Positions 4,389 through 35,992 are shown, numbered from the stretch's first letter. The stretch is 64,000 nucleotides of DNA from a virus (IMGVR_UViG_2574180019_000006), one strand, 5' to 3'. Made by a program: numbers and translations. Notes: a model not told the origin generated them from the sequence alone.

Positions 4389-4958
4389 ATGAGTAAAAAA
4401 ATCAGCGTAGTTGGTGTTGATCCCTCAATGAGCAACTTTGGGCTTGCTGTGGGCACTTTAGACCTTGAGACGGACGAACTTGAGATTCACGGCCTTACTC
4501 TTGTTGAGACTAAAGCGGGGAGTAACAAAAAGACCGTTCGTGTGAACAGTGACGATCTGCGCCGAGCCAGTGAAATATGGCGTGTTGCGAAGCCAATCAT
4601 TGATAAGGCAAATATGGTTTTTTGTGAGCTACCGGTTGGGAGCCAAAACTCTCGTTCGCAGACGTCTTACGGTATTTGTATCGGTGTACTTGCGTGTGTG
4701 GATAAGCCATTGATCCAGGTTACTCCAAACGAAATCAAGCATTTTGTCGGCAATAAACTTACTACATCGAAAGAAGAGATTATCCAGTGGGCTACGAAAA
4801 AACACCCTAAAGCACCGTGGCTGCGTCGTAAGCAATCTGGACAGGATGTTCTCGTGAACAAAAACGAACATTTGGCTGATGCGGTGGCTGCCATCCATAC
4901 CGGTATGCAAACAGATCAGTTCCGCCAGGTGCGCGATGTTCTTAAGTCTCTCATTTGA
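4389..4958 (+). CDS. putative RuvC-like Holliday-junction resolvase
   Basis: N-terminus VVGVDPSMSNFGLAV resembles RuvC/A22-type resolvase motif I; strong RBS ggtaaggagac; adjacent to recombination nuclease genes. Confidence 0.4.
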   Translation: MSKKISVVGVDPSMSNFGLAVGTLDLETDELEIHGLTLVETKAGSNKKTVRVNSDDLRRASEIWRVAKPIIDKANMVFCELPVGSQNSRSQTSYGICIGVLACVDKPLIQVTPNEIKHFVGNKLTTSKEEIIQWATKKHPKAPWLRRKQSGQDVLVNKNEHLADAVAAIHTGMQTDQFRQVRDVLKSLI

Positions 4959-4965
4959 TTTCATT

Positions 4966-4986
4966 GATAGGTAAGTGCTTATCTAT
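4966..4986. promoter_or_regulatory. Intergenic palindrome gataggtaagtgcttatctat
   Basis: Member of recurrent palindromic element family, directly after stop of preceding gene. Confidence 0.35.
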
Positions 4987-4992
4987 TAACAT

Positions 4993-5022
4993 GGGCCACT
5001 ATATTTAGTGGCCCTCTTTATT
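4993..5022 (+). terminator. Rho-independent terminator-like hairpin
   Basis: gggccactatatttagtggccc stem-loop followed by tctttattt. Confidence 0.5.
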
Positions 5023-5031
5023 TGGTGATAC

Positions 5032-7347: not shown

Positions 7348-7366
7348 CATATGGTGGGGGATATCC

Positions 7367-8705
7367 CATAAGCGCTAACTTAAGGGTTGTGGTATTACGC
7401 CTGATATGATTTAACGTGCCGATGAATTACTCTCACGATAACTGGTCAGCAATTCTGGCCCATATTGGTAAGCCCGAAGAACTGGATACTTCGGCACGTA
7501 ATGCCGGGGCTCTAACCCGCCGCCGCGAAATTCGTGATGCTGCAACTCTGCTACGTCTGGGGCTGGCTTACGGCCCCGGGGGGATGTCATTACGTGAAGT
7601 CACTGCATGGGCTCAGCTCCATGACGTTGCAACATTATCTGACGTGGCTCTCCTGAAGCGGCTGCGGAATGCCGCCGACTGGTTTGGCATACTTGCCGCA
7701 CAAACACTTGCTGTACGCGCCGCAGTTACGGGTTGTACAAGCGGAAAGAGATTGCGTCTTGTCGATGGAACAGCAATCAGTGCGCCCGGGGGCGGCAGCG
7801 CTGAATGGCGACTACATATGGGATATGATCCTCATACCTGTCAGTTCACTGATTTTGAGCTAACCGACAGCAGAGACGCTGAACGGCTGGACCGATTTGC
7901 GCAAACGGCAGACGAGATACGCATTGCTGACCGGGGATTCGGTTCGCGTCCCGAATGTATCCGCTCACTTGCTTTTGGAGAAGCTGATTATATCGTCCGG
8001 GTTCACTGGCGAGGATTGCGCTGGTTAACTGCAGAAGGAATGCGCTTTGACATGATGGGTTTTCTGCGCGGGCTGGATTGCGGTAAGAACGGTGAAACCA
8101 CTGTAATGATAGGCAATTCAGGTAATAAAAAAGCCGGAGCTCCCTTTCCGGCACGTCTCATTGCCGTATCACTTCCTCCCGAAAAAGCATTAATCAGTAA
8201 AACCCGACTGCTCAGCGAGAATCGTCGAAAAGGACGAGTAGTTCAGGCGGAAACGCTGGAAGCAGCGGGCCATGTGCTATTGCTAACATCATTACCGGAA
8301 GATGAATATTCAGCAGAGCAAGTGGCTGATTGTTACCGTCTGCGATGGCAAATTGAACTGGCTTTTAAGCGGCTCAAAAGTTTGCTGCACCTGGATGCTT
8401 TGCGTGCAAAGGAACCTGAACTCGCGAAAGCGTGGATATTTGCTAATCTACTCGCCGCATTTTTAATTGACGACATAATCCAGCCATCGCTGGATTTCCC
8501 CCCCAGAAGTGCCGGATCCGAAAAGAAGAACTAACTCGTTGTGGAGAATAACAAAAATGGTCATCTGGAGCTTACAGGTGGCCATTCGTGGGACAGTATC
8601 CCTGACAGCCTACAAAACGCAATTGAAGAACGCGAGGCATCGTCTTAACGAGGCACCGAGGCGTCGCATTCTTCAGATGGTTCAACCCTTAAGTTAGCGC
8701 TTATG
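7367..8705. mobile_element. IS186 (IS4 family) insertion sequence, ~1339 bp
   Basis: Terminal inverted repeats cataagcgctaacttaagggttg (7367-7389) and caacccttaagttagcgcttatg (8683-8705); flanked by 10-bp direct repeat ggggatatcc (7357-7366 and 8706-8715); encodes 372-aa transposase recognised as IS186. Confidence 0.85.
7416..8534 (+). CDS. insL: IS186 transposase
   Basis: 372-aa ORF filling the IS; N-terminus MNYSHDNWSAILAHIGKPEELDTSARNAGALTRRREIRD recalled as IS186 transposase. Confidence 0.85.
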   Translation: MPMNYSHDNWSAILAHIGKPEELDTSARNAGALTRRREIRDAATLLRLGLAYGPGGMSLREVTAWAQLHDVATLSDVALLKRLRNAADWFGILAAQTLAVRAAVTGCTSGKRLRLVDGTAISAPGGGSAEWRLHMGYDPHTCQFTDFELTDSRDAERLDRFAQTADEIRIADRGFGSRPECIRSLAFGEADYIVRVHWRGLRWLTAEGMRFDMMGFLRGLDCGKNGETTVMIGNSGNKKAGAPFPARLIAVSLPPEKALISKTRLLSENRRKGRVVQAETLEAAGHVLLLTSLPEDEYSAEQVADCYRLRWQIELAFKRLKSLLHLDALRAKEPELAKAWIFANLLAAFLIDDIIQPSLDFPPRSAGSEKKN

Positions 8706-8754
8706 GGGGATATCCCCACCTTCTCTTTGATTTGTAAGCCTTGTTTAAACACAT

Positions 8755-8775
8755 AAGATAACAACTTGTTTAAAC
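8755..8775. promoter_or_regulatory. Palindrome AAACAA-N-TTGTTT upstream of nrdB (operator or 5'-UTR hairpin)
   Basis: ataacaacttgtttaaac ~30 nt upstream of ATG; same motif recurs upstream of many ORFs. Confidence 0.4.
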
Positions 8776-8802
8776 GCACCAAAAAAGAAAAAGGAAAAAC
8801 AC

Positions 8803-9945
8803 ATGTCATATTCAACGTTCCGTTTGGGTGCTAATGATGCAACCAAAGAGCCTATGTTCCTCGGACAATCTGTCAACGTGGCACGTTACGATCAGCAAAA
8901 ATACCGTGATTTTGAAAAGTTGATTGAACGTCAATTGTCTTTCTTCTGGCGGCCGGAAGAAGTTGATATTTCGAGCGATCGTATCGACTTCAACACGAAG
9001 CTGCGGGACCACGAACGTCACATTTTTCTGAGCAATCTCCGTTATCAAACGTTACTCGATTCAGTTCAGGGACGTAGTCCAAATGCAACGCTGCTGCCGC
9101 TTATCTCTATTCCTGAACTGGAAACGTGGGTTGAAACGTGGTCTTTCTCTGAGACTATCCATAGCCGCAGCTACACCCACATTATTCGTGGCATGGTGGA
9201 CGATCCGAGCATTGTTTTTGACGGTATTGTTACGGATGAAGAAATCATCAACCGAGCGATCAGTATCTCTGCTGAATATGACAGGCTTTATGGGATGACC
9301 TGCGAGCGCCAGTCGTTAGGTGAGAAGGAATTTGAGCGTCTGTACGTAAATGAATATGGCTGGGAGCCATACCCTTTGCATCGTCAGCTTTTCCGCACGT
9401 TGGTGTCCATTAATGCGCTTGAGGCGATCCGTTTCTACGTAAGTTTTGCATGTACGTTTGCCTTTGGTGAACGGAAGTTGCTTGAGGGTAACACCAAAAT
9501 TATGCGCTTTATTGCCCGTGATGAAGCTCTGCATTGCGAAGGAACTGAACGCATGATCCGCTTCATGCGTACCGGTCGCGAAGGTTTATTGTGGAAAGAG
9601 ATTGCTGCTGATGAAGAAAACGTCATTTACGACACCATGAAATCAGTCGCCGAACAAGAAATGAACTGGGCAGACTATCTCTTCAAAGACGGTTCGATGA
9701 TTGGTTTAAACGCGGATATTCTCAAAACCTATGTAAAATACCGCACCAATCTGGCTATGAATCGTCTTGGCCTGAAGGCTTTATTTCCAGAAGTTACCAC
9801 TGATCCGCTGGTCTGGATGAACAAGTGGTTGTTAACCGACACACTGCAAATTGCACCACAAGAGGCAGAGCAAAGCACATATCTGGTAGGTCAGATCGAT
9901 TCTACCGTGGATAAGGCTTCTCTAAGCCAGTTTGCAGACCTGTAA
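8803..9945 (+). CDS. nrdB: Ribonucleotide reductase class Ia small subunit
   Basis: 380 aa; near-colinear with E. coli NrdB as recalled ([83 protein letters not shown]). Confidence 0.9.
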
Positions 9946-10022
9946 ACCGATACAAAGCATTATGTGGCCTGGCAACGCTGGGCCACAATGGATCACAAGA
10001 ATTAAGAAGGAGCAAAACTAGC

Positions 10023-10892
10023 ATGAACTTTACCAAACTGACTGACCACCTGAAACTTGCCACCGATCGACTCATTGGATTTAAGCCAGAACCATATGAG
10101 TTGCATGAAGGCCATGGTGTAGCCACTGAAAGTATTTACAAGATGGTCGATCAGTTTCATGAACTCTTCCAGCATCCGAGACGCGTTATGCCGACACCAG
10201 AGCTGCTTCGTCTCCGTGCAAGCCTGATTCATGAAGAAGCTGTAGTGGAAGGTATTCCAGCCGCAATGAATGGGGATATTGAGCAACTGCTGGATGCAAT
10301 GGCCGACTTTTTATACGTTGGTGTTGGTACGATGGTCGCCATCAAAGGTGGTATTTCTACCGGCATGACTTATTACACGCAGGAACAGAGCATTGATCGC
10401 TTTATGCAGACAATTTTTGTGCCTGGTAACACTGTTTTCGATGATATGGCAATGCCATTTCAGGAAGCTCGTGAGGCGTCATGTATGCTCGAAGAGCTGG
10501 CAGATAAACTTGAGAAGAAGACTGTTAAGGATTCTGAGCTGATTCAGGAACTGCGCCGTGTAATGAACAAAATCTATGTGGCGTGCATGATGACTTATCG
10601 ACTGGCTGATTTTCTCGGTATCAATGTCGTCGAGCTGGTTGGCGAAATTCATCGGTCCAACATGACAAAATTATGGCCTGCAGATGCCGAAGAGCGTCGC
10701 CATGCTGTGGCCAACTGCAAATACGACTCTTCTGACCTGGGATTTCGCCATGCTGATGGCACCGATAAGATGATCGGTTTTCGAATTTCCGATGGAAAGA
10801 TTCTGAAGTCTCCAACCTATAGTGATGTCGATTTATCCTCCTTTGTTGAGCAAGCTAAAGCCTCAGCAATGTACGGAATGATCAAAAAATAA
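10023..10892 (+). CDS. putative all-alpha NTP pyrophosphohydrolase (MazG/dimeric-dUTPase-like)
   Basis: Segment IHEEAVVEGIPAAMNGDIEQLLDAMADFLYV fits MazG-type E-E-x2-E ... E-x2-D-x2-D-F-L pattern; nucleotide-metabolism neighbourhood. Confidence 0.4.
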   Translation: MNFTKLTDHLKLATDRLIGFKPEPYELHEGHGVATESIYKMVDQFHELFQHPRRVMPTPELLRLRASLIHEEAVVEGIPAAMNGDIEQLLDAMADFLYVGVGTMVAIKGGISTGMTYYTQEQSIDRFMQTIFVPGNTVFDDMAMPFQEAREASCMLEELADKLEKKTVKDSELIQELRRVMNKIYVACMMTYRLADFLGINVVELVGEIHRSNMTKLWPADAEERRHAVANCKYDSSDLGFRHADGTDKMIGFRISDGKILKSPTYSDVDLSSFVEQAKASAMYGMIKK

Positions 10893-10960
10893 TTGTAGGT
10901 AGTTATCTATCTGTGTATATTGCGCTGGCGCGTTAAATTTCTGAAACAACTATTCGTTTT

Positions 10961-10988
10961 TGGTGGCCTATGGCCACCATTTTTTTAT
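10961..10988 (+). terminator. Rho-independent terminator
   Basis: tggtggcctatggccacca hairpin followed by T7 run. Confidence 0.55.
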
Positions 10989-11036
10989 CTGTCTGGTCTT
11001 GTTCTCTCAATAAATGTAAACTCACGCAATGAATAA

Positions 11037-12167
11037 GTGGTTACTTATCTTTGTGAGGTTTTTGTGTCACTCCTTTTGAATCGTGAGCATACGAACGGTC
11101 AGGTAACAAACGCATCGTATGCAAAAGTTATTGAGACGGTGCTTAAAAGCGGCGTGCAGGCTGATGATCGCACAGGCACTGGTACTTTAAGCACCTGTTA
11201 CGTTCCCTCTTACTACATGCTTACTGGTGGGACTGTGCCGCTTATTTCTGGAAAGGCGGTAAATCTTAAGCCACTGCTTGTCGAACTTGAGTGGTATCTG
11301 AAAGGCACGGGCAACATCCAATTTCTCAAGGATAACGGCGTTAAGATTTGGGATGCATGGGCCGATGAGAATGGCGATTTGGGGCCGGTTTACGGTAAGC
11401 AGTGGCGTCGATGGGAAGATACCCGCATCGTGAGCCATAGTGAATATCTGAGCAAGATCGCTACTTTCCGTGAACGCGGGTACAAAGTCGAGGGATACCT
11501 GGGTATCAGTGAAGATCGCGTAGTGCTGTCCCGTGAAATCGATCAGCTACAGCGTATTGTCGATACACTGCGCACGAACCCTACCGATCGTCGCATCATG
11601 CTTAACGCATGGAACGTAGGCGAGCTTGAGGATATGAAACTGCCACCTTGCCACTTTGTCTTCTCTTTGTGGAGTCGTGAACTGGATTTTGAAACCCGTT
11701 TAACGATGGCAACTGACATTGGTCTTCAACACAGTCGCCTCGGTTACGAGTCTATCTACACCAAGATGCTATACGATCTGGAGATGGACGGCAGTGTTAC
11801 TGAAACTGAACTGGATGAACTTGGAATCCCCAAACGCATCCTCAACTCCTGCCTCGTACAGCGTAGCGTAGACACTTTTGTTGGTATGCCATTCAATATT
11901 GCTGGCTATGGCATTCTCACTCATTTTCTCGCGAAGATTACGGGTCACATGGCCGGTGCATTTGTGCATTTTGGCTTTGACGTGCATTTGTACAACAACC
12001 ACATGGAAGGTGTGTGTGAGCTAATGCAACGACAGGCTCCAGAGCATTCAGATCCGGTCGTTATATTCCCTAATGAATGGTCTGAGCTGGATGATTTCAA
12101 ATGGGACGAGATTCTTATTCTTGGCTATGCCCCTCTACCGTGGATCAAGGTTCCAGTGGCGGTGTGA
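11037..12167 (+). CDS. thyA: Thymidylate synthase (ThyA-like) with two large insertions; true start probably GTG at 11064
   Basis: Conserved ThyA blocks DDRTGTGTLS, WADENGDLGPVYGKQWR, DRRIMLNAWNVGELEDMKLPPCHFVFSLW (catalytic Cys), VDTFVGMPFNIAGYGILTHF, HLYNNHME, GYAPLPWIKVPVAV; ~35-aa and ~60-aa inserts relative to E. coli ThyA. Confidence 0.8.
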   Translation: MVTYLCEVFVSLLLNREHTNGQVTNASYAKVIETVLKSGVQADDRTGTGTLSTCYVPSYYMLTGGTVPLISGKAVNLKPLLVELEWYLKGTGNIQFLKDNGVKIWDAWADENGDLGPVYGKQWRRWEDTRIVSHSEYLSKIATFRERGYKVEGYLGISEDRVVLSREIDQLQRIVDTLRTNPTDRRIMLNAWNVGELEDMKLPPCHFVFSLWSRELDFETRLTMATDIGLQHSRLGYESIYTKMLYDLEMDGSVTETELDELGIPKRILNSCLVQRSVDTFVGMPFNIAGYGILTHFLAKITGHMAGAFVHFGFDVHLYNNHMEGVCELMQRQAPEHSDPVVIFPNEWSELDDFKWDEILILGYAPLPWIKVPVAV

Positions 12168-12168
12168 T

Positions 12169-12582
12169 ATGGCAAGAGGTATGTATGTCTTATGCGAAAT
12201 TGAAGGTGTGCTGGCAAATACCAGCCATCGTAAATCTGTATCTGACTCGGATGCAGGCCAATTCATTGCAGGTGATGAACTCATTTTCCCCACCAGCCGT
12301 ATGTTGCGTGGTTTTGCTCGCTCAGGGGCTGAAGTGGTGCTTATCAGTAGCCGCTCTGAAACTCTTGAAGCGCCCACTAAACGATGGCTGAAAGATTTTG
12401 GTGTTGATTACGACTGGCTTCATCTCGTACCGAATAGCACCAGTTATGAGAAGCATATTAAGCGCACATTAGCGGAGCATAAAGGCGATCTGCTTATCGC
12501 TGCGCTGGTGCACGATCCTCGACTCCGTGCCGCTTTAGCTGACTCTCATCATAGACCGGTCATCTATGAGGTGAGCAAATGA
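12169..12582 (+). CDS. hypothetical protein (possible HAD-like fold, non-canonical)
   Basis: ORF between thyA and DHFR; ATG overlaps thyA stop region; no canonical DxDGT motif. Confidence 0.35.
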   Translation: MARGMYVLCEIEGVLANTSHRKSVSDSDAGQFIAGDELIFPTSRMLRGFARSGAEVVLISSRSETLEAPTKRWLKDFGVDYDWLHLVPNSTSYEKHIKRTLAEHKGDLLIAALVHDPRLRAALADSHHRPVIYEVSK

Positions 12583-13055
12583 AGATGATAGCTGCTGTTG
12601 GCCGTAACTATGAGATCGGCATAGCGAATGAACTGCCCTGGCGTTGTTCTACCGATCTGAAGCTATTTAAGAGACTCACCAAAAACGCCACTGTCGTTAT
12701 GGGGCGTAAAACGATGGAAAGTCTCAAACGCCCTCTTCCAGAGCGTCATAACCTCGTTTTGACGCGCTCTCATGGCTTTGTACCAAATGGATTCTACCCT
12801 GCTGGTGTGGATGATGTGTTGCGATTACCAGAGCCTGTGTGGGTGATTGGCGGGGAACAAATTTACTCGCTATTCATGCCGCATGTTGAAGAGATTTGGC
12901 TCTCCCACATCGGCGTTGATGTGCCAAACGCCGATGCATTCTTCCCGGCAAGCATGATGCGTAATTTAGGCTTTGTGCCTGTTGAAACAGCTTATACCCA
13001 ACGAGCCAGCGAGGAAGAGCCTGGCTTTTCGCAGATCGTATACAGAAGGTCGTAA
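12579..13055 (+). CDS. folA: Dihydrofolate reductase
   Basis: 158 aa; MKMIAAVGRNYEIGIANELPWRCSTDLKLFKRLTKNATVVMGRKTMESL colinear with E. coli FolA N-terminus; RBS gaggtg. Confidence 0.8.
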   Translation: MKMIAAVGRNYEIGIANELPWRCSTDLKLFKRLTKNATVVMGRKTMESLKRPLPERHNLVLTRSHGFVPNGFYPAGVDDVLRLPEPVWVIGGEQIYSLFMPHVEEIWLSHIGVDVPNADAFFPASMMRNLGFVPVETAYTQRASEEEPGFSQIVYRRS

Positions 13056-13699
13056 TGGATTACCGGATTGGGATCACTGGTGCTCAGGGCAGTGGGAAAA
13101 CAACCCTGGCTAAATATATCGACAAACATTACGGAATCCCTTACGTGGATGCTGGTGTCGGAAGTTTGATGAGCCGCCTCGGTGTTCGAGTAGGTGATTC
13201 TATGCCTCTATATGAGCGGCTTCAGATTCAAATGGAAATAGCAAAGCATATAGAGCTACTTACGCGTGGTGCTGAAGGCTTTGTTATCGATCGCACACCT
13301 GCTGATGTTATGGCCTACACGTTGGATTTGGTCGGCCATACAAATGAAGATCGGTGTATTGAGTTAGCCCTCGATATCGAAAAGTTTTGCCACAAAACTG
13401 CTATTTCAAACTTTAACGCCATTGCTGGCCTACGCCCGGGGGTCGCTCTCTCAGAGCGAGATTACTTGCGGTCACAACGAGCATCATTAGACCGTCTGTA
13501 TGTCGCTCGTATTGATGCGTTGATGTGCGGGGAACTGACAAAAATTCACCTGCATCCGCAAAGGGGAGATCTGCAAACCTTCGTCGTTTCCAACCGGTAT
13601 CGCACAGTTGAAGCAAGAGCCAGATCAGTGATGAGAATGCTAGATAACGCTGTAGAAAAGATAGAAAACCGGTTCTGTGGCCGAGTGACCGTTCATTAG
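13055..13699 (+). CDS. P-loop NTPase, putative (deoxy)nucleotide kinase
   Basis: Walker A GITGAQGSGKTT at N-terminus; ATG overlaps upstream stop (TAATG); nucleotide-metabolism context. Confidence 0.5.
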   Translation: MDYRIGITGAQGSGKTTLAKYIDKHYGIPYVDAGVGSLMSRLGVRVGDSMPLYERLQIQMEIAKHIELLTRGAEGFVIDRTPADVMAYTLDLVGHTNEDRCIELALDIEKFCHKTAISNFNAIAGLRPGVALSERDYLRSQRASLDRLYVARIDALMCGELTKIHLHPQRGDLQTFVVSNRYRTVEARARSVMRMLDNAVEKIENRFCGRVTVH

Positions 13700-15866: not shown

Positions 15867-15886
15867 ATAGGTATATACTTACCTAT
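15867..15886. promoter_or_regulatory. Intergenic palindrome ataggtatatacttacctat
   Basis: Near-perfect palindrome of recurrent family, 10 nt upstream of MTase start. Confidence 0.35.
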
Positions 15887-18973: not shown

Positions 18974-18990
18974 GAAAACAACTTGTTTTG
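18974..18990. promoter_or_regulatory. Palindrome gaaaacaacttgttttg upstream of TerB-like gene
   Basis: AAACAA-N-TTGTTT family, ~25 nt upstream of ATG followed by aaaaggaaaacacATG. Confidence 0.4.
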
Positions 18991-22129: not shown

Positions 22130-22149
22130 TAGGTAAATACTTACCTAAT
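22128..22149. promoter_or_regulatory. Intergenic palindrome gataggtaaatacttacctaat
   Basis: Recurrent palindromic element family directly after MTase stop. Confidence 0.35.
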
Positions 22150-26212: not shown

Positions 26213-26841
26213 GCACGGTAGCGAAAGATCTCACAGAAGATATTCTCAATGAAATTATTGCTGGTGCAAATACCTCGCTTGAGCAACTTCTTGCGTTAGC
26301 TCTGAGAGCCGAACGTCGAGACAGAAAACGTTTTTATGAGCGATTGCCAGGGAAGCGACCAGATAGATCGGATGAAGAAGGTTGCGATATAGACTACATG
26401 GAGCCTTCAGAGATTTATCAACTTGGTAAAGATGACGGCTGGAACGCTTATCACGATGCTGTGATGAAGTTGGATGAAAAAGTTAAACCTCTTTCTCGAC
26501 CGGTAGATCACGGTTTCCGCGATAACTGCGAATGCTCTAGTTGCCAGACCACGGCCCGTATTTGTTCCGAATTGACAGATAAGTCCAGCCTAATCTACGA
26601 AGTTAATGTAGGCGGTAATACATGGGTCGAATGCACAAGAGCTGCATACGTAAGAGCAAAAGACAAGGGTGAATTAACCAGAGTTGTTACCCATCACCCA
26701 AATGATGAGCTTAAAGATCACCAGATTAGAGAACTGGTGAACGAGTTGCGGGATATTGCGGTTCAGTACCACGGAGCGCAGCAATTGCGGGAGAAGATTG
26801 CCAGAGCAGTGAACAACTCAATTAGATCAGAAAGTATGTAG
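26209..26841 (+). CDS. hypothetical protein with Cys cluster (CECSSCQTTARIC)
   Basis: 210 aa; RBS gagagag; last gene before left boundary of host-like block. Confidence 0.45.
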   Translation: MSTVAKDLTEDILNEIIAGANTSLEQLLALALRAERRDRKRFYERLPGKRPDRSDEEGCDIDYMEPSEIYQLGKDDGWNAYHDAVMKLDEKVKPLSRPVDHGFRDNCECSSCQTTARICSELTDKSSLIYEVNVGGNTWVECTRAAYVRAKDKGELTRVVTHHPNDELKDHQIRELVNELRDIAVQYHGAQQLREKIARAVNNSIRSESM

Positions 26842-26899
26842 TCAATACAATAAAATGGCCCCATTTGGATGGGGCCGGTAACAACTAGCATTATGGGCG

Positions 26900-27260
26900 C
26901 TGGTTGACGTACTCAATGATCGCTTCGATGATTGCGAACATAGGCGGCACGATTTTGAAAAGTAAGTTAAGCACTATAGGCCTCACTTAGTTTTATCGCA
27001 CCTAGCTGCAAATACCTTTGAGCTTGCCTTTGCAGTTGCAATATCTGTAGTCGCCAGATACTTACGGCACGATTTCGAGTTAAGGTAAGGTTTTAGAGTC
27101 ACCAAAAACCTGGACTTAAATCTTCTTTGAGAACAACGATGTTTAGTAAATGGTCATTATTACCTAGTATGACCACTCAACGTTTCTTGATGAATCCAGT
27201 ACATTCGGTTAATCTTAGCTCAGTCGCCAGATACTTATGGCTCAGGAACAGAGCCGCAAA
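26900..27260. repeat. Non-coding region with three degenerate ~30-40-bp repeats (cggcacgattt(t/c)ga..; agtcgccagatactta(c/t)gg)
   Basis: Units at ~26936-26975, ~27048-27100 and ~27220-27245 share cores by eye; no ORF; lies at junction between phage-like genes and host-like block. Confidence 0.4.
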
Positions 27261-27275
27261 CTCTGTTTCCTTTTA

Positions 27276-27309
27276 AAAAGCCCAGCCTAGTCAACTGGGC
27301 TTTTTAATG
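27276..27309 (+). terminator. Rho-independent terminator
   Basis: aaaagcccagcctagtcaactgggcttttt. Confidence 0.5.
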
Positions 27310-27600
27310 TCTATTTTTAACCCAACATACCCTCAATACTGCAACATCAGTGTCTTGCGAATTAAGATAGTGTGAATAGATTTTTCATGCAAGTGCATAA
27401 GCCTGTGGATAACTCAGGAAGGAAAAAGTGACTTCTGCGCACTTTAGACCGGACAAGGCGTTCGAAAAAGTCAATGGGAAGAAAAAATTTGTTAAAAATA
27501 ACGTTTGTTTGAATTGTATATATTTATGCCTTTCAATAGTTAGCATCTTATTAACATCTTTTTTAAGAGATAGAGTTCAAAAATATATAGCTTCAATATA

Positions 27601-27620
27601 TACTGTATGTGTATACAGTA
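27601..27620. promoter_or_regulatory. LexA (SOS) box
   Basis: tactgtatgtgtatacagta = CTGT-N8-ACAG palindrome matching the LexA operator consensus, 16 nt upstream of the UmuD'-like start with RBS aagagg between. Confidence 0.7.
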
Positions 27621-27636
27621 TTAAGAGGCGAGTATT

Positions 27637-28026
27637 ATGGGCTTCCCTTCTCCTGCGGCGGATTATGTTGAGAGCCGTATTTCTCTTGATCAGCAGATAA
27701 TTAGACATCCTTCAGCGACCTACTTCATGAGAGCGGCTGACAGCCATCATCGTGAGGGAATATTGCAGGGCGCATTGCTGGTGGTCGATTCCTCACTTAC
27801 CCCGGTTGATGGTTCTCTGCTTGTATGCGCTCTGGATGGGGAATATCGCGTAAAAAGATACCGGAAGTATCCACGTCAGCATCTGGAGGATTTAAGAACT
27901 GGTAAGAAGGAAGCATTGCCAAAGGATGACGATGGATGCACGGGCAGCAATGCCGTGTTTGGTGTGATCACTCACATTATCAACGACGCAAGAAGTGGCG
28001 AGTTTGATGATTGTCCCGTGATGTAG
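27637..28026 (+). CDS. UmuD'-like S24 peptidase-family protein (starts at the position equivalent to the UmuD autocleavage product)
   Basis: MGFPSPAADYVESRISLDQQIIRHPSATYF nearly identical to E. coli UmuD residues ~25-55 as recalled; Ser of GDS(M) retained as ADSH and Lys in VKRY; C-terminal third diverged; no umuC follows. Confidence 0.7.
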   Translation: MGFPSPAADYVESRISLDQQIIRHPSATYFMRAADSHHREGILQGALLVVDSSLTPVDGSLLVCALDGEYRVKRYRKYPRQHLEDLRTGKKEALPKDDDGCTGSNAVFGVITHIINDARSGEFDDCPVM

Positions 28027-28037
28027 GAGAACTGATT

Positions 28038-28063
28038 AGGCGGTGCAATGCACCGCCTTTTTA
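28038..28063. terminator. Bidirectional terminator hairpin between UmuD'-like gene and mrp
   Basis: aggcggtgcaatgcaccgcc hairpin with T-run on plus strand; convergent gene ends. Confidence 0.5.
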
Positions 28064-29164
28064 TCACACTGCGCGGAATGCGATTTCGCCAGGTATTACT
28101 TCACCTTGCCAATACATTTGGGCAGCAACGCGATCTGCGAGGTCACGATAAATAGCTGTAAATTCGCTATCTGGACGACTAATAACGGTTGGTGTTCCGT
28201 TATCCAGATCTTCACGAAGAGAGATATGAAGTGGCATTTGGCCTAACAACTGCGTGTTGTATTTCTCGGCCAGTTTCTGTGCGCCACCGGTGCCAAAAAT
28301 TGGCTCGTGATGACCGCAGTTACTGCAAATATGCACACTCATGTTTTCAACGATACCCAGTACCGGCACTTCGACTTTTTCGAACATCACAATGCCTTTC
28401 TTCGCATCGATCAGCGCGATGTCTTGCGGCGTAGTTACCACAACCGCACCAGTTACAGGAATGTTCTGCGCCAGCGTCAACTGAATATCACCAGTGCCCG
28501 GCGGCATATCGAGAACAAGATAGTCCAGATCAGGCCACAATGTTTCCTGCAACATCTGCATTAACGCCTTGCTCGCCATCGGTCCACGCCACACCATTGC
28601 ATTGTCGTCGGTGACCAGATAACCAATAGAGTTGGTTGCCAGGCCATGAGACATGATAGGTGCCATGTGAGTACCGTCAGGTGAGGTTGGACGTTGGTTT
28701 TCCGCGCCCAGCATGGTTGGAATTGATGGACCATAGATATCGGCATCCAAAATACCAACTTTCGCACCTTCAGCAGCCAACGCCAGTGCCAGGTTTACCG
28801 CCGTGGAGGATTTACCCACGCCGCCCTTGCCTGAGCTGACGGCGATAATGTTCTTAACGCCATTAATGCCTGGTTGGTTTTTGACACGCTTAAGCGTGGC
28901 AATGTTGTACGACAGCTTCCAGTCAATAGCCTTTGCGCCAGTGATACGGAGCAGATCACCACTACATTGCTCTTTCAGGTCTTCAAAAGGCTTATTCCAC
29001 ACGAAAGGCATGATTAGTTCGACATGCAGTGTGTCATCCATCAACGCAACATGGTGTAACGCTTTAAGCGTAGTCAGGTTGTGTTTCAGGGTTGGGTGCT
29101 GAAAATTAGCCAGCGTACCGGCTACCATTGCTCTCAGGGCATCCGGCGATTTGGACTCGCTCAT
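28064..29164 (-). CDS. mrp: Mrp/ApbC Fe-S cluster carrier ATPase (ParA/MinD-family)
   Basis: 366 aa; deviant Walker A SGKGGVGKSST, CxxC (CSNCG); near-identical by recall to enterobacterial Mrp/ApbC; divergent from metG as in the E. coli chromosome. Confidence 0.9.
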   Translation of the reverse strand: MSESKSPDALRAMVAGTLANFQHPTLKHNLTTLKALHHVALMDDTLHVELIMPFVWNKPFEDLKEQCSGDLLRITGAKAIDWKLSYNIATLKRVKNQPGINGVKNIIAVSSGKGGVGKSSTAVNLALALAAEGAKVGILDADIYGPSIPTMLGAENQRPTSPDGTHMAPIMSHGLATNSIGYLVTDDNAMVWRGPMASKALMQMLQETLWPDLDYLVLDMPPGTGDIQLTLAQNIPVTGAVVVTTPQDIALIDAKKGIVMFEKVEVPVLGIVENMSVHICSNCGHHEPIFGTGGAQKLAEKYNTQLLGQMPLHISLREDLDNGTPTVISRPDSEFTAIYRDLADRVAAQMYWQGEVIPGEIAFRAV

Positions 29165-29321
29165 CCCGTCTCCTTTATTTTAATTTGCGCAATTGTCGCC
29201 TTGTAGTGTACTCCAGCTACGACATTTAATCATTTATGAGAAATGCTGTTATCACATGGCAGACATAAGGCCATTTTGTTACTATCAAGCCCCTTTTCAC
29301 TACAAAGAAGTAATGCCTACT

Positions 29322-31355
29322 ATGACCCAAGTCGCGAAGAAAATTCTGGTGACGTGCGCGCTGCCGTACGCTAACGGCTCAATCCACCTCGGCCATATGC
29401 TGGAGCACATCCAGGCTGATGTCTGGGTTCGTTACCAGCGAATGCGCGGCCACGAGGTTAATTTCATCTGTGCCGACGATGCCCACGGTACGCCAATCAT
29501 GCTGAAAGCACAGCAGCTTGGTATCACACCGGAACAGATGATTGGCGAAATGAGTCAGGAACATCAGACTGATTTCGCAGGCTTTAACATCAGCTATGAC
29601 AACTATCACTCTACGCACAGCGAAGAGAACCGTCAGTTGTCCGAGCTTATCTATACTCGCCTGAAAGAGAACGGTTTTATTAAAAACCGCACCATCTCTC
29701 AGCTGTACGACCCGGAAAAAGGCATGTTCCTGCCGGACCGTTTTGTAAAAGGCACATGCCCGAAATGTAAAGCGCCGGATCAATACGGCGATAACTGTGA
29801 AGTCTGCGGCGCGACATACAGCCCGACGGAACTGATCGAGCCGAAATCAGTGGTTTCTGGCGCTACCCCGGTAATGCGTGATTCCGAACACTTCTTCTTT
29901 GATCTGCCCTCTTTCAGCGAAATGTTGCAGGCATGGACCCGCAGCGGTGCGTTGCAGGAGCAGGTGGCAAACAAAATGCAGGAGTGGTTTGAATCTGGCC
30001 TGCAACAGTGGGATATCTCCCGTGACGCACCTTACTTCGGTTTTGAAATTCCGAACGCACCGGGCAAATACTTCTACGTCTGGCTGGACGCGCCGATTGG
30101 CTACATGGGTTCCTTCAAGAATCTGTGCGACAAACGCGGCGATACCACCAGCTTCGATGAATACTGGAAGAAAGACTCCACCGCCGAGCTGTACCACTTC
30201 ATCGGTAAAGATATTGTTTACTTCCACAGCCTGTTCTGGCCTGCCATGCTGGAAGGCAGCAACTTCCGCAAGCCGACCAACCTGTTTGTTCACGGCTATG
30301 TGACGGTGAACGGCGCGAAGATGTCCAAGTCTCGCGGCACCTTTATTAAAGCCAGCACCTGGCTGAATCATTTTGACGCCGACAGCCTGCGTTACTACTA
30401 CGCTGCGAAACTCTCTTCGCGCATTGATGATATCGATCTCAATCTGGAAGATTTCGTTCAGCGTGTGAATGCCGATATCGTTAACAAAGTGGTTAACCTG
30501 GCCTCCCGTAATGCAGGCTTTATCAACAAGCGTTTTGACGGCGTGCTGGCAAGCGAACTGGCTGACCCGCAACTGTACAAAACCTTTACTGATGCCGCTG
30601 AAGTGATTGGCGAAGCATGGGAAAGCCGCGAATTTGGTAAAGCTATCCGTGAAATCATGGCATTGGCTGACCTGGCTAACCGCTATGTCGATGAACAGGC
30701 TCCGTGGGTGGTGGCGAAGCAGGAAGGACGCGATGCCGATCTGCAGGCGATTTGCTCTATGGGCATTAACCTGTTCCGCGTGCTGATGACGTACCTGAAG
30801 CCGGTACTGCCGAAACTGACTGAACGTGCAGAAACATTCCTGAATACAGAACTGACCTGGGATGGTATCCAGCAACCGCTGCTGGGCCATAAAGTGAATC
30901 CGTTCAAGGCACTGTATAACCGTATCGATATGAAGCAGGTTGAAGCACTGGTGGAAGCATCTAAAGAAGAAGTGAAAGCAGCTGCCACGCCAGTAACTGG
31001 CCCGCTGGCAGATGATCCGATTCAGGAAACCATCACCTTTGATGACTTCGCCAAAGTTGACCTGCGCGTGGCGCTGATTGAAAACGCAGAGTTTGTAGAA
31101 GGTTCTGACAAACTGCTTCGCCTGACGCTGGATCTCGGTGGTGAAAAGCGTAATGTCTTCTCAGGCATCCGTTCCGCTTATCCAGATCCACAGGCACTGA
31201 TTGGTCGTCACACCATTATGGTGGCTAACCTGGCACCACGTAAAATGCGCTTCGGTATCTCTGAAGGCATGGTGATGGCTGCTGGCCCTGGCGGGAAAGA
31301 TATCTTCCTGTTAAGCCCGGATGTCGGTGCTAAACCTGGCCACCAGGTTAAGTAA
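29322..31355 (+). CDS. metG: Methionyl-tRNA synthetase
   Basis: Starts [30 protein letters not shown] (HIGH motif), KMSKS present, C-terminal tRNA-binding domain; essentially colinear with E. coli MetG as recalled; ORF-track start 29193 is an upstream in-frame extension. Confidence 0.95.
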
Positions 31356-31376
31356 TTAAGCAACCATTCTTCACAA

Positions 31377-31405
31377 TGCCCAGCAATACGCTGGGCATTT
31401 TCATA
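31377..31405 (+). terminator. Rho-independent terminator of metG
   Basis: atgcccagcaatacgctgggcat hairpin followed by tttcat. Confidence 0.5.
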
Positions 31406-31436
31406 TAGACACAACCCCTTCTGACTTTAACAAACC

Positions 31437-31504
31437 CTAAAACAATTTGTTTTCTACCTTTTGTTGATTGAGATAATAAGCCACATAAGAAAACAAATTG
31501 TTTC
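31437..31504. promoter_or_regulatory. Two tandem AAACAA-N-TTGTTT palindromes immediately right of metG
   Basis: taaaacaatttgttttc (31437-31454) and gaaaacaaattgtttc (31489-31504); first phage-type motif after host block. Confidence 0.4.
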
Positions 31505-31516
31505 GGAGTGGTTGAA

Positions 31517-31816
31517 ATGTTGAACATTACCCAAGCCTACCAGGTGGCATTGATCAGTTCATCTCATACATCAGAGGAAGATGCTCGCCGATTCATGATC
31601 GCAAGCAATGAGCTGGATTGGGTTTCACAAATTGACGGCGGTTGTATTGTCCACGCCGGGTTACAGGATGATGTCTGGAAAGAGGACTTGCGTCGATATG
31701 GTATATCCGAAGGCGCAATTGCTAACATTCAGAAAGTACTTGATGTAGGCTTTGACTGTGTACATTTTGATTGTGGTGCGCCGATCGTTGAAGGGCTTGA
31801 GTGCTGGTGTTGGTAG
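31517..31816 (+). CDS. hypothetical protein (~100 aa)
   Basis: ATG 31517 preceded by ggag; ORF track begins at GTG 31508. Confidence 0.4.
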   Translation: MLNITQAYQVALISSSHTSEEDARRFMIASNELDWVSQIDGGCIVHAGLQDDVWKEDLRRYGISEGAIANIQKVLDVGFDCVHFDCGAPIVEGLECWCW

Positions 31817-31947: not shown

Positions 31948-33177
31948 ATGATAATTGAACAAATAACCCCTTGCTCGGAGCTTGGAATGACTGATACCGC
32001 TTTTTCAAAATCGTTACAAAAAGAAGTCGATCCTGAGCAGTACTTGGCGCTAAAGAATTTAGATGACAGCTCGGTTCATGCTATTGCCCGTGACGATATC
32101 ATCTGCCCCATTTGCAAAGTTGGAGGTGGTTCGTTCGTTAGAGCCACTAGGAATGGTGGCTATCACAAGAAGGCGCATTTCAGATTTACCGGTGAAGATG
32201 GTCAAGGCCATCATCCATCATGTGATTTCTATGGAGATAGATTAACATCTGAGGTGAAGCAGCACCTTGTCTCATTCACAAAAGATCGAACAAAGTATTC
32301 GCAGGTAATACGAAAGCTGGTCTGTGCCGGCATACAGGAAGGGATATTTACTCAAGAAAAAATGTGGCAGATGAGGGAATGGTTCTTCAATAAGCGAAAG
32401 GATTCCACATTTGAAATATGGTTAGAAAGCGAGCATTTAGACTGGCTTTATTATATTAGTGGGTTACGTGATGCATATCTAGCATGGACAACTCCTGATA
32501 TTCTACCTTTCGCGCCCATTCAGGTTACTGTCCCTGGTTTTTCTTGGAGGCGTGCGATTGACAAAGAGGTGCTAAGAGTTCACATCAAGACTCTCCAGCA
32601 ATTGCGTGAAATTTCAGTCTCACATAGTGACATTGCTGTAATCTTAGAACACATAAACAATAATCGTGACCGCACAATTCTCGATCCATCGCATTTGGAG
32701 GACGAGATAAGTAAGACCTATAAGCTTACTAGTTTTGTGATGGGCAATTACATTGAGTTTCAGACAAAAACGGTTAGCGACAGAGCATACGGGGAAGCTA
32801 AGTTTCTGGCATTTGCAGCACTTTTGTTGTTCGTGTCAGATTGGGACCTCAACATTGCTATTGGTAAGTTTTCTAAGATTGCCAGAGTGAAGGAGGTTGA
32901 TGACATGCTGGCTGGTAATTTCATTGGTCTTAATCCTTACTTCCGATACGACCTGGCTAATGCAGTGAAGAGATTGCAGGATAACTGGCCGATTGAATAC
33001 CAAGAGTTGGAGCATTGGAATGTTGAGAAATCCATGCGTGACGCATATGAAAAGTGGCGTGCGACAGAGCCTGAATTCGCTCCACCCCTATTGCCAGACT
33101 TGTATATTGCCAAACATGAGAAAGAAGTCGCACAAGACGAGCAAGTCAGGCAGTGGATTAAGAACGGGGATGTTTGA
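31948..33177 (+). CDS. hypothetical protein with N-terminal Cys/His zinc-ribbon-like motif (alternative start 31987)
   Basis: 409-aa ORF; CPICK...HHPSCDF cluster; AT-rich upstream region without the phage-type leader; ggag RBS before ATG 31987. Confidence 0.5.
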   Translation: MIIEQITPCSELGMTDTAFSKSLQKEVDPEQYLALKNLDDSSVHAIARDDIICPICKVGGGSFVRATRNGGYHKKAHFRFTGEDGQGHHPSCDFYGDRLTSEVKQHLVSFTKDRTKYSQVIRKLVCAGIQEGIFTQEKMWQMREWFFNKRKDSTFEIWLESEHLDWLYYISGLRDAYLAWTTPDILPFAPIQVTVPGFSWRRAIDKEVLRVHIKTLQQLREISVSHSDIAVILEHINNNRDRTILDPSHLEDEISKTYKLTSFVMGNYIEFQTKTVSDRAYGEAKFLAFAALLLFVSDWDLNIAIGKFSKIARVKEVDDMLAGNFIGLNPYFRYDLANAVKRLQDNWPIEYQELEHWNVEKSMRDAYEKWRATEPEFAPPLLPDLYIAKHEKEVAQDEQVRQWIKNGDV

Positions 33178-33299
33178 GTGTAATTAGCTTAATCAATCAG
33201 TTGATAATGGCGGTCACAATTTGATTCTTTTCTATAAGAATCCGTTGATCGCCACTACTCCCCTTCCATAGCTGCAATCATACCCTTAAATATCAATAG

Positions 33300-34100
33300 G
33301 TTATGGTTGTTTATACAAATAAGAAAACAACTAAATAACAGATCAACGAAACGTCAACGCTTTCACCCGATTTGGTCTAAAAAATTGACGTTTTCACACA
33401 TCACTTCTTATACCCGTAACTCTACGCAGCAGACAGCGCCACAGCGTCCAATTTTCACCACAGACGACCCAACACACTACCAACAAAAACACACGCTCAA
33501 AATCGCTCCCGTTGCGTTACACAACCATATAAACAACTTATTTTCAGGCATAACAAAACAACTAAATAACACACATGCCATTCCCAAAAACAACCAACCT
33601 CTTTATGGCAGGCTACCGAAAAGACCCACCTCTTCTCCCCAGGCTACCGGACAACCAACCTAACTTTCACAGGCAATCCGAAAACATTCATACGCGCAAT
33701 ACCCACGACACGCCATTCCCCAAACAGCGAAGAAACACCAGAATCACTGAAACCCCAACGAAGCCTGTAACCGCAAGGATTCTCTCAATCCCAAAAGACA
33801 CGAAACATAACAATCACGGGAAATACCATTACCCAATACACGAATAACTACAAAAGCCTTTCACACACTCCAGACAAACAACTCAAACACAATAACGAAA
33901 GGAATCGCCCACCTGCCATTACTCCATACACGGAGAAGAACAATCACCAAAACGACGAGAACACCCCATAGAAGAACCACCGCAAAACGAACGAAACCAC
34001 ATACACCGACAGAGAGAACAACACACCCAATTCACCAACAGAAATAGTCGCCGTATAGAACGTTCTGGAAGGAGTGAGCATTAACGCCTATAGAGAGGTT
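33300..34100. other. ORF-free, strongly strand-asymmetric (A+C-rich, G-poor on plus strand) region with internal short repeats
   Basis: No ORF >=60 aa on minus strand; plus-strand ORFs are low-complexity; repeated aaaacaactaaataaca units; composition visibly skewed. Confidence 0.5.
33590..33670. repeat. ~80-bp repeat R, copy 1 (caaccaacctc...caggctaccg...cccacct...ggctaccgg...aactttc)
   Basis: ~75% identical by eye to copy at 37115-37200. Confidence 0.45.
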
Positions 34101-34246
34101 GAGACAGATAAAAACAACATGTATAGCGAAGAAGCCAGGTATGTATAAGTGGGGAGGGAAGGAGGGGTGTCGCCTCCTTTTTCGTATTTATTCAACTCCT
34201 GATTTTATCCCCCCGTAACACCCCTACGGTCAGCCTTCGGTCCATA

Positions 34247-34385
34247 CAGGGAAAAGGTTGCATCCCGCTACAGAAACGGCTGGGTTGCCTTCGGGGAACG
34301 GCTGGGGATTTTCAGGGAAACGGTCGAGTTGCCTGTGTGGATTTCGGGAAAAGGCTCGATGCCGGTTCAGGAACGGCGGCGTACC
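34247..34385. repeat. Iteron-like tandem array 1: six degenerate ~22-bp units with core (C)AGGGAAA(A/C)GG(C/T)TG
   Basis: cagggaaaaggttgcat / cagaaacggctgggttgc / ggggaacggctgggg / cagggaaacggtcgag / cgggaaaaggctcgatg / caggaacggcggcg in direct orientation. Confidence 0.55.
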
Positions 34386-34710
34386 GGTATAGCGAGAGGG
34401 AGAGTTGCGGCTACCCACCTGTAATGTGCGGGAAGAAGAGAGGCGCTCACGTAGGCGGACTTGCTTACCGCTGGATTCCCTCTGAATGCCCAGCTACAGC
34501 GTAATTGTGCCAGACAGCCAACGGGGCACAATCGATTTCAGTAGGTTTTTGGGGAGAGGATTACTCTGCCACCAGCCACTTTCGGCCACTAAATCAGAAT
34601 AATGTAAAAAGTGTACTCGGTACTGAACCTGAAAACTCACTGCCAAAACCACATTCACCGGAATAAAATCCTTTTTCGCCTGTGCGTTATTGCGATAATA
34701 ACACCAACAA

Positions 34711-34727
34711 GTAAACAACATGTTTAG
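34711..34727. promoter_or_regulatory. Palindrome gtaaacaacatgtttag
   Basis: AAACAA-N-TTGTTT family upstream of ORF 34758. Confidence 0.4.
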
Positions 34728-34757
34728 ACGTTATATAAACGAAGTGAGGATGAAGAG

Positions 34758-34976
34758 ATGATTAAGATGCCTGTGACGGTTGAGGTGTGGGGCGTGGATT
34801 CCCTGGCTGAGTGTCTGGATGCAGTGGGGCCGGAGTTGTACCGCAAGTTGTGGTCGTTCGTCCCGGCAGAAGGGGAATCGCCCAAAGGGAAGGATATCTG
34901 GCACCTGCTGAGTGAAGATGAAAAGCGGGAGCTGGTGGACGCGGTACACAGCGAGTTCCCGGGCGACGAAGATTAA
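34758..34976 (+). CDS. hypothetical small protein (72 aa)
   Basis: RBS gaggatgaagag; preceded by conserved palindrome. Confidence 0.4.
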   Translation: MIKMPVTVEVWGVDSLAECLDAVGPELYRKLWSFVPAEGESPKGKDIWHLLSEDEKRELVDAVHSEFPGDED

Positions 34977-35976: not shown

Positions 35977-35992
35977 GTAAGTATATACTTAC
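35977..35992. promoter_or_regulatory. Perfect palindrome gtaagtatatacttac
   Basis: Recurrent palindromic element family; identical 16-mer at 56623-56638. Confidence 0.4.

Follow-up and report, generated by a model that had tools for sequence, protein, structure and literature searches.

The 64,000-nucleotide stretch of viral DNA analyzed here (IMGVR_UViG_2574180019_000006; its full length is called the window) is part of a single Escherichia coli phage-plasmid of the SSU5 supergroup, a virus of ~112 kb that is also maintained as a plasmid. Between two backbone genes, humD and a DUF5983 gene, this element carries a 3.3-kb block comprising apbC (mrp), a divergent promoter region, metG, and a terminator. 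The block encodes a full-length, host-type methionyl-tRNA synthetase (MetRS) and the iron–sulfur (Fe–S) cluster carrier ApbC. Its divergence from present-day genomes shows it to be an old copy from an enterobacterial chromosome, and codon comparisons among alleles show purifying selection on the element at least as strong as on the chromosomal copies. The block is a near-core trait of an Escherichia sublineage of these elements and not a one-off. From these patterns, we consider it probable that the ancient, intact apbC–metG pair is a selected auxiliary housekeeping module of Escherichia phage-plasmids. The specific benefit is a more tentative matter: possibly, the block is kept because an extra, element-controlled supply of its products is of use to the element.

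The window belongs to one SSU5-like phage-plasmid

Over positions 4651–7367 and 8704–52986, the window is collinear with one circular plasmid of E. coli (111,954 bp) at 99.95–100% identity. The 7-kb neighborhood of the block is 100% identical to this plasmid and 97–98% identical to many others, including pLAU-OXA1, and it occurs uninterrupted in 70 complete E. coli genomes as well as in phage records. The matching circular plasmids encode terminase, portal, and major capsid proteins, ParB partition genes, nrdAB, thyA, dfrA51, and rnhA, and terminase, portal, capsid, and ParB genes lie in the window itself; structural and packaging genes and partition genes are thus found together on one circular replicon, the combination that marks SSU5-like elements. 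Relatives have been filed as phages under the names Cyrano, CMS-2020a, and PhiR41_1, the record of the last giving K-12 MG1655 as host. Cyrano (pLF82) makes siphovirus particles and is present at ~5.5 copies per chromosome (PMC9928086), and SSU5-supergroup phage-plasmids of the Enterobacteriaceae have been described (Pfeifer et al. 2021; PMC7969092).

Together, the collinearity with a plasmid, the co-occurrence of phage and partition genes, and the phage-filed relatives identify the element as an SSU5-supergroup phage-plasmid to which both flanks of the block belong. An earlier reading made from the DNA alone (the sequence-only reading) had placed mrp and metG between blocks of phage-type genes and had assigned both flanks to one mobile element. 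The first statement is borne out by an open reading frame (ORF) scan and by the RefSeq annotation of matching records, and the second by the collinearity of the window with one circular plasmid. As an element, it does not differ from other members of the supergroup (Cyrano/pLF82, pECOH89, PhiR41_1), which are likewise circular, of ~110 kb, and equipped with siphovirus structural genes; the apbC–metG block, by contrast, is confined to the Escherichia sublineage.

The block encodes intact, host-type MetRS and ApbC

A blastn search against E. coli K-12 returned a single high-scoring segment pair covering window positions 28068–31356, bounded by the stop codons of mrp and metG, at 88.9% nucleotide identity. 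The capture of host DNA claimed earlier therefore stands, at a size of 3.3 kb and not ~4 kb, since 27400–28026 holds the P1-type gene humD. The chromosomal DNA has been cut back to the gene ends, and the chromosomal neighbors yehE and yehF are absent.

In MetRS, the class I methionine catalytic domain (PF09334) is matched at residues 8–397 (profile positions 1–390 of 391; E = 3e-166), followed by an anticodon-binding domain (PF19303, residues 416–539) and a C-terminal tRNA-binding/dimerization domain (PF01588, residues 581–674). The signature motifs HLGH and KMSKS and the zinc-knuckle cysteines (Cys146/149/159/162) are kept, and residues 1–552 match solved E. coli MetRS chains (E = 0). The protein is identical to that of K-12 at 666 of 677 residues (98.4%; 94.7% for metG at the nucleotide level), with T361A, A505T, A556T, and A668V as the private substitutions of the window allele. 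A comparison with five Escherichia lineages revealed no fixed phage-plasmid-specific residue, and MetRS thus looks like a canonical Escherichia-type enzyme. The codon bias of metG is kept too, with an effective number of codons (ENC) of 39–41 and a G+C content at third codon positions (GC3) of 0.60, versus 37.6 and 0.63 in K-12. Given its 98.4% identity to the K-12 enzyme, MetRS is predicted to aminoacylate both tRNAMet and tRNAfMet.

ApbC matches the family of NUBPL-type P-loop NTPases (PF10609) over the full profile length (E = 2e-102) and has the deviant Walker A motif GKGGVGKS as well as the CXXC cluster-binding motif, here CSNC at residue 280. It shares 94% of its amino acids with K-12 Mrp (82.7% nucleotide identity) and bears 15 fixed lineage-specific residues, which cluster at 4–69 and 296–350 and leave the P-loop core unchanged.

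The divergent arrangement of mrp and metG around a host-like intergenic region, as described in the sequence-only reading, is also confirmed: the intergenic region aligns with those of Escherichia, Citrobacter, and Salmonella and is homologous to the chromosomal one. In seven other phage-plasmid alleles, it is 99.4–100% identical to the window. Compared with the chromosomal mrp(apbC)–metG locus of Enterobacteriaceae, the block has the same two genes, likewise divergent, an intergenic region homologous to that of the chromosome, and its terminator in the same position, but it differs in its nucleotide identity (88.9% to K-12), its trimmed flanks, and the GC3 of apbC, which is down from ~0.62 to 0.52. 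The phage-plasmid apbC is as distant from Escherichia as Salmonella is.

Distribution and coexistence with the host metG

A metG query against 5,426 complete E. coli genomes returned 214 records at an identity of at least 95%, all of them plasmids, and 5,425 records at 90–95%, which represent the chromosomal type and reach a maximum of 94.9%. These two identity classes mean that carriers hold two metG genes and that the phage-plasmid allele resides on no chromosome; a chromosomal-type metG is present in every one of the genomes except at most one. A second metG on a mobile element, put forward earlier as an unusual prospect, is therefore a recurrent condition in E. coli.

The terminase and portal of the sublineage are found at 95% identity or more in 186 PLSDB records. 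The block is present in 180 of these at a coverage of at least 80%, with 184 in the 95–99% identity band. The terminase and portal of the wider supergroup occur in 758 PLSDB records, including Klebsiella (305), Enterobacter (91), Yersinia (62), and Salmonella (49), and at megablast sensitivity no apbC–metG block was detected in this wider set; nor did the examined relatives from Klebsiella and Salmonella contain it. At the protein level, tblastn against PLSDB recovered 205 records with a MetRS of at least 95% amino acid identity. Near-identical plasmid MetRS is essentially restricted to Escherichia/Shigella elements, the other full-length matches in this search being megaplasmids or mis-assigned replicons.

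Among 50,697 phage records, a host-type MetRS stands in a credible phage context in only four, all phage-plasmids. Two further records were set aside as parallels: that of Acinetobacter phage MD-2021a (CAKLQF020000011.1) is chromosomal DNA (dcd, pfs, mrp, emrB, dcyD), and that of Pseudomonas phage Y5 (OQ572407.1) bears an UNVERIFIED flag, has no annotation, and is unusable. Hundreds of public records already carry annotations for the genes of the block, which also appear in one supplementary table; we found no discussion of them in the literature, and no paper linking SSU5-like phage-plasmids to metG, MetRS, or apbC.

Age and origin of the block

The genes had been taken to be essentially identical to Escherichia chromosomal alleles, which would imply a recent capture. 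Neither point withstands comparison, as the block is 88.9% identical to K-12 and the best E. coli chromosome reaches 94.9% for metG. Distances at 4-fold degenerate sites, calculated from gapless codon alignments against GTDB species representatives, place the phage-plasmid 0.195 (metG) and 0.52 (apbC) from K-12. The corresponding values between K-12 and other Escherichia species are 0.18–0.24 and 0.27–0.32, and those between K-12 and Citrobacter/Salmonella are 0.38–0.40 and 0.46–0.49. For the three pairs of phage-plasmid alleles that diverge most, the distances are 0.20–0.235 in metG and 0.11–0.14 in apbC. Divergence of the flank among the same plasmids is similar to that of metG (humD, 95.6–97.7% identical; metG, 94.7–97.9%), and the capture is therefore older than the diversification of the sublineage.

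In neighbor-joining trees, metG of the phage-plasmids is monophyletic (86% bootstrap) within Escherichia, and the crown of this clade reaches as deep as the genus itself; the apbC alleles form a clade (100% bootstrap) on a long stem beside Escherichia with a shallow crown. Informative sites divide into E. coli-like and Citrobacter-like in proportions of 79/73 in apbC, 8/24 in the intergenic region, and 191/47 in metG. Two histories could produce such patterns: a single old capture from a chromosome of the early Escherichia lineage, followed by faster decay of apbC, or a later replacement of metG by an Escherichia allele, which would leave a mosaic. A single capture would fit both trees, in which the phage-plasmid groups with Escherichia or beside it, and is supported by the fall in apbC GC3 alongside the retained bias of metG (ENC ~40). 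The "Citrobacter-type" intergenic segment is also present in one Escherichia species. Tree placement, the apbC GC3 drop, and this shared segment led us not to uphold a clear two-donor mosaic. As to the donor, none of the best 80 GTDB species representatives, a set that includes neither E. fergusonii nor the type genome of E. coli, exceeded 95% amino acid identity for ApbC or 83.5% nucleotide identity for apbC.

Purifying selection and recombination

Across eight phage-plasmid alleles, 199 segregating codons of metG differ by synonymous changes only and 10 change the amino acid; for apbC, these numbers are 64 and 1. Pairwise ratios of nonsynonymous to synonymous divergence (dN/dS) lie at 0.00–0.037 among the phage-plasmid alleles and are no higher than the values for chromosomal alleles (~0.02). 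All ORFs are intact, with no stop codons.

Recombination among phage-plasmids has also left its mark on metG. Most of the backbone differs between the window and pLAU-OXA1 by 0–3 single-nucleotide polymorphisms (SNPs) per 500 bp, with a few other local peaks, whereas the 3′ half of metG (30000–31400) shows 8, 15, and 30 differences per 500 bp and constitutes a recombination tract. Only six records of the E. coli collection match this tract at an identity of at least 99%, and the one of them that was listed is a plasmid. Recent gene conversion from E. coli was rejected as a source, as sliding windows of the eight alleles against K-12 never exceed 99%; an E. coli donor was likewise rejected for the most E. 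coli-like tract of the window allele (30850–31250), for which the best chromosomal matches are ~95.5%. For apbC, no comparable recombination source was found among the species compared.

Possible role of the block

Turning to function, we propose that the housekeeping module would operate as follows. The block, copied long ago from an enterobacterial chromosome into the slot between humD and the DUF5983 gene, would have both genes expressed from their own retained promoter and terminator signals. MetRS would charge tRNAMet and tRNAfMet, ApbC would deliver Fe–S clusters, and the multicopy element would in this way gain its own supply of both activities. The gain could accrue during lytic growth or host stress through sustained translation initiation, or it could fall to the lysogen.

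Expression can be gauged from the supplementary transcript table for strain LF82, which represents an overnight culture in lysogeny broth and is the sole lysogen data set. Normalized counts are ~148 for the humD homolog CYRAN_98, 92 for the apbC homolog, 16 for MetRS, and ~7–10 for structural genes (PMC9928086). In the same study, CYRAN_98 is raised in LF82 transcriptomes and the apbC homolog is listed as a moron of Cyrano, at ~9× the element background (PMC9928086). A moron would have its own promoter and terminator and be expressed in the lysogen. The block has hairpins at both ends and a conserved putative promoter block (29265–29321), and its lysogen transcript stands at ~9× background for apbC but only ~1.6× for metG.

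Several points weigh against the housekeeping-module proposal. The metG transcript is only slightly above background (~16 versus ~10), and cross-mapping with the chromosomal metG copy is possible in these counts. At least one close relative, plasmid BHD6, is without the block, having lost it or never had it, and in one PLSDB copy of the block a transposase lies under the match; taken together, the metG-less relative and the transposase-bearing copy indicate that the element can propagate without the block. Recombination with unsampled Escherichia chromosomes, and not selection on the element, could account for part of the low dN/dS of metG. Finally, the enzyme activities and the fitness benefit are both properties that we infer from sequence.

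A more pointed variant, which we regard as unlikely, holds that apbC–metG is a selected takeover or anti-shutdown module. With MetRS, and an Fe–S carrier, supplied from a multicopy replicon, charging of tRNAMet and tRNAfMet would continue while translation is throttled by the host. The throttling could arise from methionine limitation, from the stringent response or persister entry, or from a defense acting on Met-tRNA charging. Were this so, induction and lytic growth would be secured, chromosomal metG tolerance mutations could be masked, and the element would be the first temperate phage with a host-type essential aminoacyl-tRNA synthetase (aaRS) as a near-core gene for such a purpose.

Less likely again is a history in which selection acts on apbC, with metG retained chiefly through the divergent control region that the two genes share. 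This would fit the LF82 transcript levels of the two genes (~9× versus ~1.6× background), and the 15 fixed lineage-specific changes in ApbC suggest adaptation to the element. However, metG itself shows a dN/dS of 0.00–0.01 in most pairs and has retained its codon bias.

The block could instead be a neutral passenger that hitchhikes in a variable region, given the low metG transcript in lysogens and the unrelated cargo that the slot holds in relatives (DUF4145; a type I restriction–modification (R-M) system with DUF262; ydfZ). We judge this very improbable. At a synonymous divergence (dS) within the clade of up to 0.35, a neutral gene would be expected to have accumulated many replacements and frameshifts, but the synonymous-only and changing codons stand at 199/10 and 64/1, eight of eight alleles are intact, and a MetRS of at least 95% identity persists in 205 PLSDB records.

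A second aaRS on a plasmid can confer resistance or immunity, as do mupA, encoding an isoleucyl-tRNA synthetase (IleRS), and AgnB2, the leucyl-tRNA synthetase (LeuRS) of pAgK84. By analogy, the block could supply a MetRS variant insensitive to an inhibitor or toxin; this is the usual role of a second aaRS on mobile elements, and the same element has dfrA51. MetRS, however, is set apart by no fixed phage-plasmid-specific substitution, so only an effect of dosage is left for this explanation, which is as improbable as a neutral passenger. Still more doubtful is that the block serves as a homology arm, a substrate for recombination with the chromosome in integration, mobilization, or gene conversion. 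The ~2 kb at 94–95% identity to the host metG would suit this, and the dense SNP tracts in the 3′ half show recombination, but the copies at 95% or above are on plasmids in 214 of 214 cases and on a chromosome in none of the 5,426 genomes, no tract reaches 99% to an E. coli chromosome, and the constraint at the protein level would be left unexplained. The resistance, passenger, and homology-arm explanations thus fail on the residue, codon, and chromosome tests, respectively.

A recent capture from E. coli, or an assembly chimera with the chromosomal mrp–metG locus, would account for the chromosomal gene order and intergenic region and for the 98.4% identity of MetRS to K-12, but its probability is negligible in light of the nucleotide identities given above, and chimerism, raised as a caveat in the sequence-only reading, is excluded by identical junctions in at least 70 independently assembled circular plasmids and four phage records. 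The companion caveat, two independent phage-like elements around an ordinary chromosomal mrp–metG locus, is favored only by where the block lies, with phage-type genes on either side, and is just as negligible, being excluded by the collinearity of the whole window with one ~112-kb circular plasmid, the absence of yehE and yehF, and the continuity of the backbone across the slot in the metG-less relative.

Relation to known systems and implications

Host-derived auxiliary genes, aaRS genes included, are already known on phages and plasmids, and the block joins them. Huge and jumbo phages encode aaRSs, Microcystis phage MaAM05 and uncultured phages of >600 kb being examples, and these are likewise virus-borne enzymes that stand beside the host's own. 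Theirs are divergent (24–29% identity to the block MetRS) and belong to genomes of >200 kb, whereas the enzyme described here is of host type (98% amino acid identity) and is encoded by a temperate phage-plasmid of ~110 kb. The mupA IleRS and the AgnB2 LeuRS resemble the block MetRS in being additional copies of an essential aaRS carried by a mobile replicon. At functional positions, they depart from the sensitive enzyme of the host, in contrast to the block MetRS with its lack of lineage-specific residues. Like phage morons and auxiliary metabolic genes, the block is host-derived, has a putative promoter and terminator of its own, and lies in a variable region. Unlike them, its cargo is an essential translation enzyme and not a virulence, defense, or metabolic function, and it is near-universal in its sublineage.

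In practical terms, metG is present a second time in ~4% of complete E. coli genomes (214/5,426), on a replicon that is both multicopy and virus-transmissible, and the same elements also spread CTX-M-15 and dfrA51, a trimethoprim-resistant dihydrofolate reductase (PMC12217456). Since antibiotic-tolerance mutations repeatedly arise in metG (e.g., PMC11004401) and some multilocus sequence typing schemes include it, an unnoticed paralog at 94–95% identity could affect variant calling, typing, and tolerance phenotypes. The block is also a clear example of purifying selection that persists unrelaxed on an essential but apparently redundant gene of a mobile element, which implies a benefit to be measured.

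The cargo slot and its neighbors

The features of the slot are listed in the table. Its limits are apparent from plasmid BHD6 (NZ_CP141793.1), in which homology to the window ends at 28026 and restarts at 31434, with a DUF4145 gene in between (6544–7287 of its locus). In the same region, a Klebsiella relative has a type I R-M system and a DUF262 gene (4517–12527 of its locus), and a Salmonella relative has the host-like ydfZ (9620–9823 of its locus) with small ORFs; in both, the slot is bounded by conserved upstream genes and by a conserved unannotated stretch of 1.6–1.9 kb. In pCP53-113k, a type I R-M gene and a homolog of the Pol III theta subunit lie directly upstream of humD (1–718 of its locus). 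Unrelated cargo at the same place in relatives indicates that the block occupies a variable accessory slot, which, by its gene content, behaves as an accessory or defense hot spot.

Table. Features of the apbC–metG block and its surroundings (window coordinates)
Feature	Position	Strand	Basis or remark
LexA (SOS) box TACTGTATGTGTATACAGTA, near-consensus	27603..27622	+	Read from sequence; overlaps the humD promoter
humD (UmuD'-like S24 peptidase)	27637..28026	+	Pfam PF00717; backbone, P1-type; left limit of slot
G+C-rich hairpin with T-runs on either side	28038..28058	.	Terminator scan; RNA fold −18.6 kcal/mol
apbC/mrp, Fe–S cluster carrier P-loop NTPase, 366 amino acids	28064..29164	-	PF10609, motifs, RefSeq name apbC
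Divergent apbC–metG intergenic region, 157 nucleotides	29165..29321	.	Retains conserved metG-proximal block TTTGTTACTATCAAGCCCCTTTTCACTA
metG, full-length methionyl-tRNA synthetase, 677 amino acids	29322..31355	+	ORF scan, RefSeq annotation, Pfam, structure matches
metG terminator hairpin, then TTTTCAT	31375..31399	+	RNA fold −17.6 kcal/mol; right-end alignment
Backbone resumption with two leader motifs (31440–31452, 31491–31503) ahead of the DUF5983 gene	31434..31516	+	BHD6 homology; motif matches
DUF5983 gene	31517..31816	+	PF19419; annotated in relatives; backbone, right limit of slot

To the left, humD is 84–88% identical at the nucleotide level to the humD genes of P1, P7, D6, SJ46, and RCS47, and this likeness to unrelated P1-family phage-plasmids suggests exchange between phage-plasmid families. 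A promoter-like site lies upstream of it at 27576–27604. The hairpin between humD and the apbC stop is likely a bidirectional terminator, and the one that follows metG has the position of the chromosomal metG terminator with a different sequence.

Two stretches near the slot have no annotated gene. The first, the ~800 bp upstream of humD (26842–27636), contains GTCGCCAGATACTTA twice, at ~27051 and ~27223, and is a hot spot of SNPs when the window is compared with pLAU-OXA1 (37 differences in 26501–27000). The second, 1.6 kb at 33178–34776, is rich in A and C, with a strong strand bias in 33001–34000 (GC skew −0.30, AT skew +0.31), three tandem 31-nucleotide units at 33588–33679, and an unannotated ORF of 90 amino acids at 33575–33847 that is preceded by a leader motif. 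Annotation gaps of 1.6–1.9 kb occur at the matching position in BHD6 and in the Salmonella and Klebsiella relatives. No tRNA gene was found in the window, and Rfam gave no match in 26–36 kb.

Repeated backbone motifs and other insertions

The sequence-only reading had also pointed to regulatory motifs shared by both flanks. Exact copies of AAACAA-N-TTGTTT are present on both sides of the block, at 18976, 19705, 31440, 31491, 35574, and 47683 (six versus 0.24 expected), and the additional site given at 8755 is a copy with one mismatch at 8759. The motif TAGGTAAGTA occurs exactly at 15876(−), 22138(−), and 49622(+), three times versus 0.02 expected. Of the palindromes proposed on both sides, those at 15876 and 49622 are exact and that at 4968 has one mismatch, and none lies near 35977. 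As an argument for one element, the shared motifs point in the right direction but are weak beside the whole-plasmid matches.

AAACAA-N-TTGTTT belongs to a longer unit, in which a −10-like GATAAT/TATTAT is followed after ~12 nucleotides by AGAAAACAANNTGTTT. Fifteen copies of the motif with at most one mismatch are found between 8759 and 47683, all on the + strand and on both sides of the metG block, and most have a ribosome-binding site and a start codon 10–60 nucleotides downstream. The copies look like a family of putative promoter/leader or operator sites of the backbone. An imperfect palindrome, TAGRTAAGTA-NN-TAYCTA, has TAGGTAAGTA as its left half; it often follows TGA or CGA and is distributed on both strands across the window (292, 4968, 15876, 22130–22147, 49622, 53045, and others).

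Two insertions distinguish the window from related plasmids. Between nrdA and nrdB, ~1.35 kb of the window (7368–8703) has no counterpart in the closest plasmid match and codes for a 372-residue protein (MPMNYSHDNWSAILAHIGKPEELD...), which we take to be a transposase of the IS186/IS4 family. Conversely, pLAU-OXA1 has an ISEcp1–blaCTX-M-15 insertion (10757–13541 of its locus) at a point corresponding to ~19625 of the window, which is without it.

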